Source: Octopus sinensis (taxonomy: Eukaryota). Taken from it: 64,000 nt of DNA. The stretch is from contig NC_043001.1 of assembly GCF_006345805.1 (NCBI RefSeq), positions 112,840,001-112,904,000 on the forward strand, read 5' to 3'. Below, one piece after another: positions 21,729 to 60,617 of the stretch. Within the stretch, counting starts at the first letter, position 1. Each line of letters opens with the position of its first letter. The notes below the pieces were generated by a model. The model had not been told where the DNA came from. It saw only the letters and a program-made list of their open reading frames with translations, and did no database searches. Both the position numbers and the translations under genes were made by a program.

Positions 21729-21838
21729 CCTTTTAAGTAAAATGTTTTATTTCTTAAAAGATTTTCTTCTACTTTTCTATTGAGTTTTCTGTTTCAATCC
21801 TCCTGTAGGGCATCTTTCTGTGTTTATATATATATATA

Positions 21839-22221
21839 GGCGCAGGGGTGGCTGTGTGGTAAGTAGCTTGCTAACCAACCACATGGTTCCGGGTTCAGTC
21901 CCACTGCGTGGCATCTTGGGAAAGTGCCTTCTGCTATAGCCACGGGCCGACCAATGCCTTGTGAGTGGATTTGGTAGACGGAAACTGAAAGAAGCCTGTC
22001 GTATATATGTATATATATATATGTTTTCCCGTTTGGATTAAGATTATATATATATATATATGTAGGTGTGTGTTTGTCTCCCTAGCATTGCTTGACAACC
22101 GATACTGGTGTGTTTACTTCCCCGTCACAAAGAATAAATCCCAGGGTCGATTTGCTCGACTAAAGGCAGTGCTCCAGCATAGCTGCAGTCAAATGACTGA
22201 AACAAGTAAAAGAGTAAAAGA
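21839..22221 (+). mobile_element. Family A SINE with internal deletion
   Basis: Full head and TAAAAGAG tail; the LTTAGCGG-to-GCTT segment (CTTAGCGG...GGCTT, ~50 bp) present in other copies is missing at ~22126. Confidence 0.9.
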
Positions 22222-26085: not shown

Positions 26086-27051
26086 TATTATTATTATAAG
26101 GCCAATGGATGGTGGAAATGTTTGAGCATTGTTTGTTACCTAAAATCCATTCAAATTCCTCTTGGGGTCCACCTGTAGTTTTCTTGTTTGGTGATTGGTA
26201 AACTAAGTACCAGTTACAGACCAGCTGAGGCATGTGTTTGATTACTGATGTAATCAAATGCACATCATTAGCTTTGTGTCTGTCTAGTTGTTAGGTAAGA
26301 TGACAGACATTAAAGGATGCTAAGTTATAAGTTAGTAAAACTAAAGTTGTTAATATATTTTGCTATTTAATGTATACTTTTGATTGAAATACATCTAGAA
26401 AATAAATTAGCCTTGTGACCCTGGCATATAACTATATGTGCTAAAAGTTTTCACTAGTTAGATCTTTGTTTAATAGTTTGGTGTTCTATTCATTTATAGA
26501 TTACCTGTCTGTTTTGTTTGTCTCTACTGGATGTAAAATATTGTGCATGCATGTGTGTGTGCATGGACACATGTCCACCAATAGAAATTGGTGATTATGT
26601 GTCTGTGACTAGTTTCTGTCCATTATATAGATAGCTGTTATATAGAAAAGTACCACCACTGCTTACTTTTTATTTAGAGATTATCTCAAAGTTGTTGTTT
26701 AGCCAAAGTTCTCTCATTATTGAGCAGACCTATGACAAAAGATATTTCAGCCGTGACCATTCCTATCTAGGCATGTTGCTCTGAAGACCGCATTTATCTA
26801 ATATGTACTTCTTTTCCTAAGATAGTAGGTTTTGGTTGGAGAGAAAGATTTTAGCTGCTATTTCTAGCAGTTCAATTGACTGTATAGAAGCATCATTATT
26901 GGCTTGCTTGTATGTAACCTCTCCAAAAAGTTTTTGTGTCTTGATACAACTTTTCATACGACCGATTTGCAGAGGTCAAAAATGTTAGGGGTTTTTCTTG
27001 CTGCTCCATCCCCACCCTAATTTTCTCCGTATTATTATGTCTCTTTTTTTT

Positions 27052-27458
27052 TACTCTTTTACTTGTTTCAGTCATTTGACTGCGGCCATGCTGGAGCACC
27101 GCCTTTCGTTGAGCAAATCGACCCCAGGACTTATTCTTTGTAAGCCTAGTACTTATTCTATCGGTCTCTTTTGCCGAACCGCTAAGTTACGGGGACGTAG
27201 ACACACCAGCATCGGTTGTCAAGCGATGTTGGGGGGGACAAACACAGACACAGAAACACACACACACACACACATATATATATATGCATATATACGACGG
27301 GCTTCTTTCAGTTTCCGTCTACCAAATCTACTCACAAGGCTTTGGTCAGCCCGAGGCTATAGCAGAAGACACTTGCCCAAGGTGCCACGCAGTGGGATTG
27401 AACCCGGAACCATGTGGTTGGTAAGCAAGCTACTTACCACACAGCCACTCCTGTGCCT
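27052..27458 (-). mobile_element. Family A SINE, full length
   Basis: Complete reverse complement of the family A consensus. Confidence 0.92.
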
Positions 27459-27638
27459 GTCTAGATATTTTTCATTATCACTGCAGTATCATTTGATTTG
27501 ACTATTATTTGCTAGGAGTCACTACCACCACCACTTTCATCATCATCATCATCATCATCATTCCTGTTCTAACTACTCTACCTCTGTGTTCAAATCTACT
27601 TGAAGACGTGTGTGAATGCACAAGGTATTCATTCATAG

Positions 27639-34352: not shown

Positions 34353-34493
34353 TATATATATGTATACACACACACACATACACATAATGCATGTATGTAT
34401 GTGTGTATATATATATATATATCTATATATATGCATGTATATAGTGTGTGTATATATATATATTTTTTATCAAATTTTTTTTTCAGAATGAAG

Positions 34494-34541
34494 GTCTTAC
34501 AGCTGTTTCCGGGATATTTTATATATCCCTTCATCAGAGAC
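34494..34541 (-). ncRNA. Type-I minimal hammerhead ribozyme (left arm)
   Basis: Mirror image of the plus-strand motif at 34635-34682. Confidence 0.75.
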
Positions 34542-34634
34542 AGTGTGAGAAAATGGTTAAGCAATAGTTAATTTAGACACTCTGTATTTCATATCATAAC
34601 CAAATTAACTATTGCTTAACCATTTTCTCACACT

Positions 34635-34682
34635 GTCTCTGATGAAGGGATATATAAAATATCCCGGAAACAGCTGTAAGAC
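34635..34682 (+). ncRNA. Type-I minimal hammerhead ribozyme (right arm)
   Basis: GTCT-CTGATGA-A-GGGATAT(ATAAA)ATATCCC-G-GAAA-CAGCTG-TA-AGAC: stem I GTCT/AGAC, 7-bp stem II, palindromic stem III ACAGCTGT, GUA cleavage triplet (cut after 34678). Confidence 0.78.
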
Positions 34683-34921
34683 CTCTTTATAAATGTTCTG
34701 TAATCTTTCAGTCTTCGATTTTTATCTCATTCGGTTAATATTTTTATATATATGCATATATATACACATTTATATATGTATGCGTATATACATATACACA
34801 CATATACATATATATATGCATATATATTATGTAGAGGCTATCTATCTGTCTATATTTATATATATATATATATATATAGCTGTGTCTATATCTATATGCA
34901 TATATATGCTGTCTATATAAA

Positions 34922-35611: not shown

Positions 35612-36224
35612 CATATAATATATTATATATATATATATAATATATATATATATTTGTAGGAGCACTTCTGTTTGTAGATATATGTGTGTATAGGCCTATA
35701 TATGTGTACATTATATATGCATGTCTTTATATACATACATGCATGCATATATATATTTTAAATATGAACTTATAAGCATGTGTATGTGTTGTGTATATAT
35801 GTATAGGTATGCTTACATATATATATATGTGTGTGTGTGTATATGCATTACATATAGACTTTTTCACTTTCCAAGCATATTTGTGTGTTTGCGTGTGTGA
35901 GTGTACACACACACACTCACACACACAAACACCTAAGTATACATACATTACATATATATGTGTATACTTAGGTGTTTGTATGTGTAATATGTGCTTGTGT
36001 GTGTGAGTGTACACACACACACACATATATTACATATACAAACATCTAAGTATATATATATATGTTATGTATGTCAGTATGTATAAAATTTTATCATGTT
36101 ACTTGGGAACAGGTGATGGCTTGCATCAGTGCAGGTATCCAGGTGTAGATAACCTTGCCCTACTGGAATCTTGTCTCACCAATGTCACCCTTGATAAGTT
36201 GATGTTAAAATGATATTGATGGTA

Positions 36225-38480: not shown

Positions 38481-39046
38481 GGTATGTGTGTGTGCAAATG
38501 TAACTGTATTATGAAATGTAACTATACTAATGTAGCTGATGCAAACATTTTGAAATATATATTTTATGAGCCTGTTTGAATTTGTGTTTGTCTCTCTGCA
38601 AATGTATAATCAGCTAAGCTCATCTATATGTGTATAATTATATTTATATGTATGAATAATTTGTATTCAAAATGTCTAGAGAAAATATATTTGATATAAC
38701 TTGGTAGATGAATATTACTGCTTTTGCAAGACTATAGGCTTCACGCTACACAGTGCAATCATCAGATGGATATAATTTGAACGGAGGTGTTTCTCTTGAG
38801 ACAAAAAATGTTTCTTAGAATTGCATTCCCTATTCACATGCTTATATTGTATGTCATGTGTCATTTTTGTATAACTGATTGAACTTTTGACTGTGGAAAT
38901 GTACACATGTTTTAAATATGCATATATATATATATATAAATATTAGGGTAGTGCTAATGCATGGCCACAGTCAGTTACCTGAAACAAGTAAAAGAATAAA
39001 AGAATATGTGTGTATATGGATTTCATTGTTATGGAAATTGTAAATT

Positions 39047-40073
39047 GTGTGTCTGTGTTTGTCCCCCTAGCATTGCTTGACAACCGATACTGGTGTGTTT
39101 ACGTCCCTGTCACTTAGCGGTTTGGCAAAAGAGACCGATACAATAAGTACTGGGCTTACAAAGAATAAGTCCCGGGGTCGATTTGCTTGACTAAAGGCGG
39201 TGTTCCAGTAACTTTTAAAACATGCTAATGCTTTTAAATCTACTCTTTCCAATTGTCTTTGAAGTATCAAAATTTTTGCTATGCATAACTGTGACCTATT
39301 ACTCAGACAGTTCTACTAGAATTGTGTCAATGACCATGGGTCAAATGGTTTGATGAAAGTTTTGACTCCAAGAAGGATGTGAAATGCGAGTTAAAAAAAA
39401 GTTTTTTTTAATTTAAATTGCTAATATGACTCTTGCATGATGTAAATGGTGTGTGTGTGTGCACACATGTATGTGTGGATACATGTATGTGTGCATGTGT
39501 GTGTGTGTATATACGTAAAAGCACCCAGTACACTCTTGGAGTGGTTAGCATTAGGAAGGGCATCTAGCCATAGAAACACTGCCAAAACGGGCTGGAGTCT
39601 CATGCAGCCTTCTAGCTTGCCAGCCCTGGTCACACAGTTCAGTCCATGCCAGCATGAACAACGGATGTTAAATGGTGATGATGATGATGATGATATGTAT
39701 ATATATATGTATTAGGCGCGAGTGTGGCTGTATGGTAAGAAGCTTGCTTCCCAACCACATGGTTCCGGGTTCAGTCCCACTATGTAACACCTTGAGCAAG
39801 TGTCTTCCACCATAGCCTCAGGCTGACCAAAGCCTTATGAGTGGATTTTGTAGATGGAAACTGAAAGAAGCCTGTCGTATATATATATAATATGTGTGTG
39901 TATGTTTGTATGTCTGTTTGACAAACGATTTTGGTGTGATTACGCCCCCCATAACTTAGCAGTTTGGCAAAATAGACTGATAGAATAAGTACTTGGCTTA
40001 CAAAGAATAAGTCCTGGGGTTGATTCATTCGACTAAAAGCGGTGCTCCAGCATGGACTGAGACAAGTAAAAGA

Positions 40074-47009: not shown

Positions 47010-47420
47010 CTCTCTTTTTACTCTTTTACTTGTTTCAGTCATTTAACTGCGGCCATGCTGGAGCACCGCCTTTTAATCGAGCAACTCGACCCCGGGACTT
47101 ATTCTCTTGTAAGCCCAGTACTTATTCTATCGGTCTCTTTTGCCAAACCGCTAAGTAACAGGGATGTAAACACACCAGCATCGGTTGTCAAGCAATGCTA
47201 GGGGGACAAACACAGACACACAAACATACACGCACACACATATATATACATATATACGACAGGCTTCTTTCAGTTTCCGTCTACCAAATCCACTCACAAG
47301 GCATTGGTTGGCCTGGGGCTATAGCAGAAGACACTTGCCCAAGATGCCACGCAGTGGGACTGAACTCGGAACCATGTGGTTGGTTAGCAAGCTACTTACC
47401 ACACAGCCACTCCTGCGCCT
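47010..47420 (-). mobile_element. Family A SINE, full length
   Basis: Complete reverse complement of consensus; lies in the segment that interrupts the left arm of the inverted duplication. Confidence 0.92.
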
Positions 47421-48169
47421 ATTTCATTTTGGTTGTTTCATTTTTGCTACAATTACATCAAAATTGGGGCATTTTGATGCCAGAGCAACTTGGATGCAGT
47501 CTTTCAGGTCCAATCGATTACTCTGCTTTGTTTTTATATCCCTTAGAGTGGAAAATCCTTGTTTGCAAAGCTAGATTGTTGCAAAAGGCTTTTTAGTGGT
47601 TGGTACGATCAACTAAAACCCCAAAAAATGGCATACCCAGCATGGCCAGAGTTCAATGACTGAAATTAGTAAAAGAAAGAGAGGAGGAAACAAACTATTT
47701 TCATAAGGTATATTGAATACAGGTATCATTTTGTGGGTCAGCATTGTTTAGACACATAAGTTGCTGCTTATTATTCTTTGCTTGCATAACAGTTGGCAGC
47801 AGAATTCCTTACCTGTTGAAATATGTGAAGTAGCTTTCATTGTGCTCTTTTGTAGTGAAAAAATGCTTCTGTTTGGCACAAATTCTTCAAGGTACTTAGT
47901 GCTTCTCCCGTCTGGAATTCCATGTTTTTTTTTAAACAAGAAACTGACTCGGGCTTTTTATTATTTCTCATCCTGTAGCTTACACAAACATTTTAATATA
48001 TGAAAGCTCTCCCTCCTCTCCACTCATACAGCCACCCACACACCCTCACACTCATTTACTTAAGTACACTACATATATTTAAACATAGAACTTTTCGAGC
48101 ATTCACTAACTGTTATGCACAAACTATCAAAAGTACACATATTGTCAGGTATTTATATATACATATAAT

Positions 48170-50131: not shown

Positions 50132-50467
50132 TATATATATGATGAATACTTTTAACCGTGTTGGTATGTTTAATGATAATCACAACATAGAGACTCTCAA
50201 GTGTAAAAACTGAAATCTATAAAACTTAAAATTTTGTCATTGCGTATGTAATGCTACTGTGCACAGATAAGCCAAGAGAAAATAAAAATGAAAATGTAAA
50301 AGGTACAAATGTATAGAAGGCATCATATATGAACTACTTGATAGAAGACTGAGTTGGTACAGGCATAGGATTAATGCATGTGAAAGATGATGAGGGACAG
50401 AAGTGTTGAGCAGTCCAAATGAAAGGAATCTGTGAAAGGAGGCTGAGGAAGACAGATGAAGTAGTAC

Positions 50468-50887
50468 TCTCTTTTACTCTTTTACTTGTTTCAGTCATTT
50501 CACTGTGGCCATGCTGGAGCAACGCCTTTAGTCGAGCAAATCGACCCCGGGACTTATTCTTTGTAAGCCCAGTACTTATTTTATCGGTCTCTTTTGCCGA
50601 ACCGCTAAGTGACGGGGACGTAAACACACCAGCATCGGTTGTCAAGCAATGCTTGGGGGACAAACACAGACACACAAACATATACACACACACATACATA
50701 CATATATATATATATATATACATATATACGACAGGCTTCTATCAGTTTCCGTCTACCAAATCCACTCACAAGGCATTGGTCGGCCCAAAGCTATAGCAGA
50801 AGACACTTGCCCAAGGTGCCACGCAGTGGGACTAAACCTGGAACCATGTGGTTGGTAGGCAAGCTACTTACCACACAGCCACTCCTG
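50468..50887 (-). mobile_element. Family A SINE, full length
   Basis: Reverse complement of consensus. Confidence 0.92.
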
Positions 50888-51004
50888 AAGGTTTAATCTC
50901 ACTATGGTGAATTTCACAAAGGATCTGCAATAAATGGGAAAATGCTGTGCTAGAAAAGACCTGTCCAAACAATCAAACATGGCAATACAAGTGTAAAATG
51001 TGGA

Positions 51005-52691: not shown

Positions 52692-52718
52692 TGGCCTTTC
52701 TTACATTTCTCTTTGTTA

Positions 52719-52803
<85 letters not shown>

Positions 52804-52830
52804 TAACAAAGAGAAATGTAAGAAAGGCCA
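52692..52830. repeat. Near-perfect 139-bp palindrome centred on (TA)n
   Basis: TGGCCTTTCTTACATTTCTCTTTGTTATG(TG)n(TA)n(CA)nTAACAAAGAGAAATGTAAGAAAGGCCA. Confidence 0.93.
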
Positions 52831-57038: not shown

Positions 57039-57357
57039 CAGAGCTGACCATGTATCAGATAGATGTGGTATGAAGATTCTGAATCATGTGTCTAACATAT
57101 TCTCGTACAATCATAAGCATACAAGTTCACATATGCATGCAGGCCCCTCACACTTCTGTTTGCTTGCCTCTTTGTATTGAATCATCCAAACTTGTTACTA
57201 CCTCAATAATACTTAGAACATTGTTTGTAATACATAACTACAGATATACATGCACACATATTCATGACATTTATGTGTGTGTGTGTGTGTATATGTATAT
57301 ATATATGTGTGTGTGTGTGTGTAAATATGTATGTATTTATATATATATATATATATA

Positions 57358-57528
57358 GGCGCAGGAGTGGCTGTGTGGTAAGTAGCTTGCTAACCAACCA
57401 CATGGTTCTGGGTTCAATCCCATTGCGTGGCATCTTGGGCAAGTGTCTTCTGCTATAGCCCCGGGCCGACCAATGCCTTGTGAGTGGATTTAGTAGACGG
57501 AAACTGAAAGAAGCCTGTCGTATATATG

Positions 57529-57559
<31 letters not shown>

Positions 57560-57770
57560 GTTTGTGTGTCTGTGTTTGTCCCCTTAGCATTGCTTGACAA
57601 CCGATGCTGGTGTGTGTTTACGTCCCCGTAACTTAGCGGTTCGGTAAAAGAGACCGATAGAATAAGTACTGGGCTTACAAAGAATAAGTCCCGGGGTCGA
57701 TTTGCTCGACTAAAGGCGGTGCTCCAGCATGGCCGCAGTCAAATGACTGAAACAAGTAATAGAGTAAAGA

Positions 57771-59217: not shown

Positions 59218-59568
59218 TAATAATAATAATAATAATAAATGTGTTGACCGGCTGTGTGGATACAGGATTTGCTTTGTAATCACATGAGGATTTCCACTAC
59301 ATTGTATGTAAGGCACTTGTCTATTGTGTACTACTACTTACTATCAACGAGTGGAATTGGTAGATGGAAACTTAAGTAGAAGCCTGGTGTGTGTGTGTGT
59401 GTGTGTGTTTTAATATTTCACTTAGGCATAGTGAGACTAATATGCCCTGGTGTAGAACTCAATATACATATGCTTCAGAACACAATATTAGATGAGTATA
59501 AAGTAGTAATAAGAACAAAGAGATGACAATGGAAAGAAAGAAACAAAGGTTATGTAATGAACTTCATT

Positions 59569-59635
59569 GGCTTACAGCTGTTTCTGCTATAAGATGCAGT
59601 GGACTCCTAGTTCATTCTACAGCTTCATCAGAGCC
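59569..59635 (-). ncRNA. Type-I hammerhead ribozyme with long stem II
   Basis: Minus strand GGCT-CTGATGA-A-GCTGTAGAATG...CATCTTATAGC-A-GAAA-CAGCTG-TA-AGCC: stem I GGCT/AGCC, palindromic stem III ACAGCTGT, GUA site. Confidence 0.78.
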
Positions 59636-60174
59636 TTTAATATGAAGTGTACTTTATTTGGGAAAATTACATTTTTGAAACATACATGTATTGCGAGTGA
59701 GAAAGGCTATGTTGATGCCTGTGGACAATTCTGTCCATAATTTATTCTCTGACCCAAGCAAACCTGTAAGTGTTATGTTAAAATGATGATATCTGAATAT
59801 GTGTGCATATGTGTATGAATGCTTACATTTTGCATCTTTTGCATGAGTATTGAGTAAAAATTATGGTATTGTTTTGTTAATATTCTGTCAACAAATTGTC
59901 CTCTAGTTCTGTACTTTTGAAGAAAGGCGAATCCTTTTCTTGACAAATAGATGTAAGTTAATGAAAGGAAGGGTATCTTAAATTGTAAAACCATGTTTTA
60001 ATAAATATTTGTTCTTGTTGGCATGGAAAAAATGATTGGTAAACCAGAAGAAATGAATGTTAGATTAATGAATGAAAGAAAAGAACAAATGAGTGATATA
60101 AAATACATTGATTAAGCAATTCTGTGTTATGTCTAGCCAAAATTGCCCTACAGATATAACATAGACTGGACAGT

Positions 60175-60567
60175 GGCGCAGGAGTGGCTGTGTGGTAAGT
60201 AGCCTGCTTACCAACCACATGGTTCCGGGTTCAGTCCCACTGCGTGGCACCTTGGGCAAGTGTCTTCTACTATAGCCTCTGGCCGACCACCTTGTGAGTG
60301 GATTTGGTAGACGGAAAATGAAAGAAGCCCGTCGTATATATATGTATATATGTGTGTTTGTGTGTCTGTGTTTGTCCCCCTAGCATTGCTTGACAACCGA
60401 TGCTGGTGTGTTTATGTCCCCGTCACTTAGCGGTTCGGCAAAAGAGACGATAGAATAAGTACTGGGCTTACAATGAATAAGTCCCGGGGTCAAGTTGCTC
60501 GATTAAAGGCGGTGCTCCGGCATGGCCACAGTCAAATGACTGAAACAAGTAAAAGAGTAAAAGAGAG
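60175..60567 (+). mobile_element. Family A SINE, full length
   Basis: Matches consensus end to end. Confidence 0.93.
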
Positions 60568-60617
60568 TATGTGATATAGTTCTTAGCTATTTTTATTTAA
60601 AAAATTTTTAAATTTTA

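Follow-up and report, generated by a model that had tools for sequence, protein, structure and literature searches.

Minimal type I hammerhead ribozymes have been described in Penelope-like elements (PLEs), where helix I is 4-5 bp, helix II is long and helix III is palindromic (Cervera and De la Pena 2014, PMC4209133). In the account given there, single motifs derive from truncated PLEs, opposite-strand pairs lie 100-700 bp apart, monomers do not cleave and dimers have low activity. The consensus (>80%) in Fig. S3 of that paper reads CUGANGAH GNNNNN...NNNNNC GAAAN palindrome NUH, with a bulge on the 5' side only; one 'AGAAA' entry, its row not assignable, stands among the core strings of the figure. 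A palindromic, very short stem III and an association with PLEs also characterize the short-stem-III hammerheads (Lunse, Weinberg and Breaker 2017, as summarised in PMC6765202), which cleave as dimers and which the motif studied here resembles in both respects. Double hammerheads are described as arising by the merging of stems III (PMC6466107 section 1.3.1), and an inverted, 5'-truncated layout has been described for PLEs (PMC8557442).

We analyzed a 64,000-nucleotide stretch of Octopus sinensis DNA (the window). A descriptor scan found three hammerhead motifs in total, at 59635-59569 on the minus strand, 34635-34682 on the plus strand and 34494-34541 on the minus strand (Table 1). The first is a type I hammerhead with all core bases present, the reverse complement of 59569-59635 reading GGCU CUGAUGA A GCUGUAG...UUAUAGC A GAAA CAGCUG UA AGCC. 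It carries the minimal-hammerhead core in type I order (C3 U4 G5 A6 N7 G8 A9, G12 A13 A14 A15.1, U16.1 H17), a palindrome over positions 15.2-16.2 plus loop 3 (ACAGCUGU), and a short helix I with a long helix II; stem I is 4 bp and stem II 7+3 bp, or 11-12 bp in the repeat family to which the copy belongs, family B. One nucleotide is unpaired after A9 and the G-C pair is present, while a second unpaired A precedes G12, as in 56/63 family-B copies.

Compared with the PLE class as set out in PMC4209133, the motif has the same type I layout, CUGANGA and GAAA cores, 4-bp helix I and long helix II. In both, a nucleotide separates A9 from the first G-C pair and helix III is small and palindromic; the GUA site recurs in the D. 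willistoni row of that study. Common to both, too, are opposite-strand pairs and thousands of single motifs that derive from truncated elements. It differs in an extra 3'-side nucleotide (C-A-GAAA), which creates a 1x1 mismatch where the consensus has ...NNNNNC GAAAN, and in the stem II region of family B, which measures 54 nt and includes an inner hairpin. The extra nucleotide deviates from that >80% consensus; it violates no invariant laid down for the class. The alignment portion of PMC4209133 that was covered shows no row from a cephalopod. The sequence at 59569-59635 is an ordinary, worn member of this known class. The explanation that we favor, with a probability of about 0.85, is that it is a decayed minimal type I hammerhead in a 5'-truncated end piece, likely left by a PLE beside a microsatellite, and probably does not cut. 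This reading builds on the observed motif, copy number, decay and nearby endonuclease remnants.

Table 1. Hammerhead parts and repeats located in the window.
Feature	Position	Strand	Basis or remark
Stem I 5' strand GGCU	59632..59635	-	descriptor scan
Core C3-A9 CUGAUGA, intact	59625..59631	-	descriptor scan
Stem II region	59585..59624	-	basal A.A (59624 with 59585), 7 bp, A.C mismatch, 3 bp, 16-nt loop
Core G12-A15.1 GAAA, intact	59581..59584	-	descriptor scan
Palindromic stem III ACAGCUGU	59574..59581	-	8 bp between two molecules, -11.1 kcal/mol predicted
Predicted cleavage site after GUA	59572..59573, cut between 59573 and 59572	-	sequence and hammerhead numbering
Stem I 3' strand AGCC	59569..59572	-	minority form; AGCU commonest in family B
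Competing hairpin	59570..59593	-	stem II 3' arm CUUAUAGC pairs with GCUGUAAG; predicted dominant in window copy
Family B 3'-end (pLTR/3' UTR) remnant, solitary, 5'-truncated	59412..59740	-	ends at common 3' terminus GTGAAATATT
(GT/CA)n microsatellite	59387..59408	.	abuts element 3' end; usual flank of family B copies
Family A hammerhead	34635..34682	+	GUCU/AGAC, A.G at stem II base, ACAGCUGU
Inverted family A hammerhead, identical	34494..34541	-	GUCU/AGAC, A.G at stem II base, ACAGCUGU
SINE-like repeat copies	1-169, 21828-22024, 27050-27468, 39045-39889		
SINE-like repeat copies, further	47210-47427, 50465-50899, 57347-57768, 60170-60578		

The first-pass annotation took the hammerhead to be genuine, and the core and architecture found on the minus strand, type I and minimal with a palindromic stem III, bear this out. 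None of 100 local dinucleotide-block shuffles of the window contained such a motif (stem I >=4, stem II >=6). A chance match to the hammerhead consensus would be in keeping with the lack of a folding signal (z 0.05) and of an Rfam match, but it is scarcely conceivable given those shuffles and the thousands of genomic matches against 0-2 in reversed-pattern controls. With Rfam, no hammerhead was matched when 59500-59700 was searched alone (E <= 10), nor was one among the 150 of 217 matches listed for the window, which are microsatellite hairpins. Long inverted repeats centred on microsatellites lie at 52693-52829 and 35954-36063 and explain why Rfam reported spurious miRNA matches. The window contains no convincing ORF of at least 120 aa, and an abundant SINE-like repeat of ~400 bp (85-96% identity), unrelated to the hammerhead, has many copies in it.

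The element that holds the motif is a ~330-bp piece of an old repeat, family B, the closest copy of which is 85% identical. When genome G000 (2.72 Gb) was searched with 59430-59760, 2,656 first-look candidates came up, and the 40 that were scored had 73-91% identity, the window copy itself excluded. A family-B 22-mer had 240 exact matches in the genome versus 0 for the control, and a strict family-B core pattern found 78 copies, again versus 0. Within the window, a profile search returned one match, 59737-59407 (E 1.4e-98), and no second copy. Over the 65 copies that cover the motif, mean identity to the column majority was 84%, and the window copy was 79% identical to the 64 others on average and 85% at best. 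Since 30 loci of this alignment had been picked by the 22-mer, core conservation was measured separately on 17 copies picked by upstream sequence only. The core was kept in 8/17 and the core plus palindrome in 2/17, with 168/180 positions conserved in the core versus 775/962 downstream. This better-kept core fits constraint in the source elements; selection on some copies is also possible.

Copies of family B have a variable 5' truncation, a common 3' end and flanking microsatellites, and nearly all are shorter than 0.5 kb and non-coding. Opposite-strand pieces were present at 28 of 72 loci, and one locus had a same-strand pair only, ~1 kb apart. Shared sequence extends ~660 nt upstream of the hammerhead without an ORF. 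No full-length or intact element was found in the G000 loci examined, and family B appears extinct. One 102-nt contig, of depth 2 and from a sequencing run guessed to be RNA, matches 59498-59599 exactly; it was set aside as evidence because its strand and RNA origin are uncertain. No usable orthologue across the motif was found in DNA runs, where other family-B copies swamped the reads.

The window copy is also worn in its fold. Its stem II region is 40 nt, a 14-nt deletion having taken half of the inner hairpin of the 54-nt family-B form, and it carries an A.C mismatch in addition. Stem II had been called completely different and longer than that of the 34.6-kb pair; the 40 nt are indeed there, but they represent a deleted form and not the family design. 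The 67-mer 59569-59635 did not fold as a hammerhead, with z = 0.05 and 103/200 shuffles folding equally well. In folding computations, the probability of the basal stem II G-C pair was 0.045 in the window copy versus 0.977 in a better-kept copy (L007), and the stem II 3' arm is predicted to prefer GCUGUAAG, covering half of the palindrome and the cleavage site. In family B, the stretch comprising palindrome and cleavage site is similar to the stem II 5' arm, which gives the 3' arm two possible partners. The exact 8-bp alternative pairing is retained in 22/65 copies and could be a built-in off conformation or chance. By these folding energies, which leave out tertiary contacts and proteins, the window copy is predicted to misfold and is probably inert at its site.

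A link to Penelope elements had been suspected, and endonuclease remnants at three loci for family B (L108, L253 and L274) and at one for family A (L204) support it. L108 carries a family-B copy that is preceded on its own strand, at a distance of ~1 kb, by the C-terminal part of an endonuclease. At L253, an endonuclease of the same subfamily (76.5% DNA identity) sits on the inverted arm beside the family-B arm. L274 has a different endonuclease, joined to an inverted family-B 3' end and followed by upstream sequence of family B. The family-A copy at L204 is 220 nt downstream of an endonuclease, and a third ACAGCUGU-bearing motif follows one by ~230 nt at L291. Thus, the pLTR or 3'-end location typical of PLEs is seen at the three broken family-B loci, in family A at L204 and for the motif at L291. 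The C-terminus of a 717-aa ORF at L162 matches the L253 fragment at 38% identity (E 5e-17). The nearest atlas clusters of that ORF (score 0.99) have HTH_animal in 25-38% of their members, and GIY-YIG appears in clusters ranked lower. Pfam gave no significant match on the endonuclease fragments or L162, the best being GIY-YIG at E 0.054. The linked ORFs are presumably of Penelope/Poseidon type, a label drawn from sequence motifs and from similarity to G000 ORFs.

Family B bears the marks of insertion by EN+ PLEs (5' truncation, fixed 3' end, inverted arms and microsatellite targets). As reported for Penelope/Poseidon-clade PLEs, including PAc of Anolis, insertions combine 5' truncation, an inverted 5'-truncated arm and microsatellite targets, and the hammerhead is near the 3' end after a C-terminal endonuclease (PMC8557442, PMC11167929). 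Family B differs in appearing extinct and in its ~1 kb endonuclease-hammerhead spacing, and the clade label is not tree-based. The sole PLE coding remnants linked to family B are endonuclease; an RT plus GIY-YIG ORF between two pLTRs was not seen, and family B was absent within 1.5 kb of 28 other endonuclease relatives. Given the three broken endonuclease-linked loci, family B is likely of PLE origin.

Several other partners were rejected. The RT fragments next to L017 and L018, like the endonuclease adjoining a short family-B piece in L210, come from families in which the remaining copies have no family B. In Neptune-like PLEs, found via PF01541, the palindromes differ (ACAUGU and others), and sequence of family A or B is absent. 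At L108:2031-5108 and L275:3309-3455, other PLE ORFs start shortly after family-B ends on the same strand, which would fit PLE insertion into or next to the ends of older PLEs.

Alternatively, family B could be a non-autonomous element, retrozyme- or SINE-like, that borrowed PLE proteins and was never the end of a coding PLE. The short non-coding copies and the ORF-free ~660 nt upstream are compatible with this, and no intact ORF linked to family B was found. We nevertheless consider it improbable, as at two independent loci family B has the same endonuclease subfamily next to it, arranged as in a PLE. Metazoan non-LTR retrozymes likewise have a type I hammerhead in a non-coding repeat, and in the axolotl motif HHR_Amex2 the base of helix II is a U.U mismatch (sections of PMC7229834 and bioRxiv 10.64898/2026.07.22.740005). 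However, retrozymes are marked by units of 300-600 nt that repeat in tandem and each bear a hammerhead; no such arrays were seen among the 72 loci, where copies are solitary or inverted, and the window holds a single copy.

The most distinctive part of the motif is the base of stem II (positions 10.1/11.1). In family B, a 1x1 A.A mismatch is fixed there (56/63 copies). Family A has AA in 9, AG in 6, AU in 2 and AC in 1 of 18 examples, and 15 examples from other families show AA (3), UA (3), UU (3), GU (2), CA, GC, AU and UC. The purine-purine juxtaposition singled out in the first-pass annotation is therefore present in both window families, as A.A and A.G, but is no subtype marker, because other families have pairs or other mismatches at this position. 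Judged from these sequences, the 10.1/11.1 position is relaxed in the ACAGCUGU group, and the mismatch is the only point, a modest one, at which the motif departs from the known class of PLE minimal hammerheads. A literature search, with Lunse et al. 2017 outside its scope, turned up no earlier purine mismatch at 10.1/11.1. Families A and B would escape descriptors that demand a 10.1/11.1 pair, and motifs of this kind have therefore probably been undercounted.

It may be that an unpaired 10.1/11.1 position cripples the ribozyme and that the clade keeps the motif as a protein-binding or structural element that never cuts. On origin this agrees with the explanation that we favor, and it differs in ancestral activity alone. 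The fixed A.A of family B speaks for it, as do earlier surveys that rejected hammerhead matches mispaired at N10.1-N11.1 (in the relevant part of PMC3088659) and the report that cleavage is unneeded for PLE insertion in vitro (PMC11167929). Yet natural hammerheads with U.U, the best-tolerated mispair, at the base of stem II have been reported (PMC3088659, PMC7229834), and families whose stems are unrelated retain all 11 core bases and the NUH site, the pattern that selection for catalysis would produce. We regard a motif that never cut as rather unlikely, though worth keeping in view. Four identical cores with ACAAUUGU and A.G at the stem II base (G000:C1:37469596, 49064188, 67848042 and 75161225) belong to a young-looking family, which is the best candidate for testing cleavage by the mismatch form.

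Stem I offers a comparison between families. The window copies of families A and B differ there in a single pair, U-A in A and G-C in B, so the compensatory change that had been claimed is real between families but concerns one pair only. It also involves a minority form, AGCC being the stem I 3' strand in 5/65 family-B copies and AGCU in 42/65, and no counterpart was detected within family B. Among 16 natural family-B copies, 88.7% of cells were paired with just 2 double changes, and the covariation score was 0.144 versus 0.143 when shuffled (231/500 as high); most of the differences among copies reflect decay. Across families, full pairing is seen in six different stem I sequences (GUCU/AGAC, GGCU/AGCY, UUCAC/GUGAA, AUCAUU/AAUGAU, UUUAC/GUAAA and AUCU/AGAU), which supports the earlier view that the hammerhead fold is conserved.

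The palindrome is far more widespread than the window suggests. All three window motifs have ACAGCUGU, so the stem III of 59569-59635 is indeed shared with the 34.6-kb pair. However, the motif is not the independent hammerhead that it was first taken for; it belongs to a repeat family, and the pattern CUGAUGA...GAAACAGCUGUH occurs 2,091 times in G000 with a stem II of 10-40 nt (control 2) and 1,388 times with one of 41-70 nt (control 0). The genome thus contains at least 3,479 hammerhead cores with ACAGCUGU. By eye, the first 100 of the 1,388 long-stem cores comprise about ten or more families with unrelated stems II. Among 3,459 short-stem-II cores of the form ACA-NN-UGU, 2,091 have ACAGCUGU, and others belong to families with ACAAUUGU, ACAUAUGU or ACACGUGU; further PLEs bear ACAUGU or ACAAUUGU. 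Family A has 2,619 candidates. With ACAGCUGU so abundant, two families that carry it within 25 kb are to be expected.

Similarity between families A and B was not detectable beyond the core (best E 0.0024). The endonucleases linked to them are 31-34% identical over only 41-52 residues, so the ACAGCUGU palindrome is either old or convergent. Descent is the most likely reason why A and many other families would have it in common; slow change of the palindrome would be expected, since any single substitution would break two dimer pairs.

Other PLE groups in the genome have their own variants. Another family, at L225-L251, has a hammerhead ~250-300 nt after the endonuclease with extra nucleotides at the stem II base and an odd-length, near-palindromic stem III (ACCU-A-AGGU or ACCC-A-GGGU). 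The Neptune-like PLEs (L077, L078, L087, L090-L093, L100-L102 and L107), some with ORFs intact at 780-880 aa, have a UUGAUAA core variant (U3-A8) and the palindrome ACAUGU ~570 nt after the ORF. One further group (L122-L126, L129 and L132) has hammerheads with a ~60-nt stem II and ACAAUUGU, and its L127/L129 ORFs have a long, Asn-rich segment inserted downstream of the RT thumb.

In the ancestral element, the motif would have worked as a homodimer, with two RNA copies pairing through ACAGCUGU such that A15.1 of one molecule pairs with U16.1 of the other. By this topology, and by analogy with published PLE hammerheads, each core would comprise the stem I 5' strand, CUGAUGA, stem II and GAAA of one molecule and the GUA cleavage site and stem I 3' strand of its partner. 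A shared palindrome alone does not imply cross-family dimers, because stem I would also be exchanged between the partners. As stem I is then intermolecular, the change between A and B puts a mismatch or bulge in both heterodimer cores. For the window copies, computed stem I energies were -5.7 for B/B and -2.9 kcal/mol for A/A, versus -2.7 and -3.6 (with a one-base bulge) for a B strand on an A substrate and +0.4 kcal/mol for A on B. Family medians (18 A and 22 B copies) were -3.2 for A/A, -2.3 for B/B, +1.5 for A on B and +1.0 for B on A. Because stem I differs by family, like-with-like pairing is favored in these computations.

The first-pass annotation had proposed that the shared palindrome could allow cleavage between different element families. 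That such heterodimers form and matter in cells would draw on the presence of ACAGCUGU in thousands of cores of many families, on first two stem I pairs common to several families, and on the bulged B-on-A stem I, which comes near the A/A value. On the other side are the unfavorable A-on-B energy and cross-family medians and the predicted misfolding of the window copy. The two family-A ends at 34492-34684 form a perfect ~89-bp inverted repeat with a ~27-nt spacer, a typical inverted PLE stub, and its arms are predicted to make one ~89-bp hairpin from either strand (-144.5 and -151.9 kcal/mol), so that both hammerheads would be masked in transcripts spanning both arms. In PMC4209133, moreover, even linked homodimers of minimal hammerheads showed weak cleavage, and the PLE hammerhead of Anolis, as described in PMC11167929, needed its protein and was dispensable for insertion in vitro. 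No heterodimeric hammerheads were found in the literature, with Lunse et al. 2017 outside the scope. As a biological function, heterodimeric cleavage thus finds no support in these predictions and is very unlikely, although one-way cleavage of an A substrate by a B strand through a bulged stem I may be possible in the test tube.

A broader proposal is that a large PLE clade freed the 10.1/11.1 position, allowing A.A, A.G, C.A, U.U or any pair there, still cleaves, and is enabled by ACAGCUGU to cut in trans between families through a bridgeable stem I, such as the B-on-A stem with its one-base bulge. We hold this, too, to be a long shot; if true, it would amount to ribozyme-level interference between retroelement families, and one-way trans cleavage would be a new way for retroelements to interfere. 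Under the decayed-end explanation that we favor, 59569-59635 is one of thousands of fossil PLE hammerheads and of little consequence as found. The natural series of A.A, A.G, C.A and U.U forms to which it belongs provides a ready test set for the importance of the 10.1/11.1 pair.
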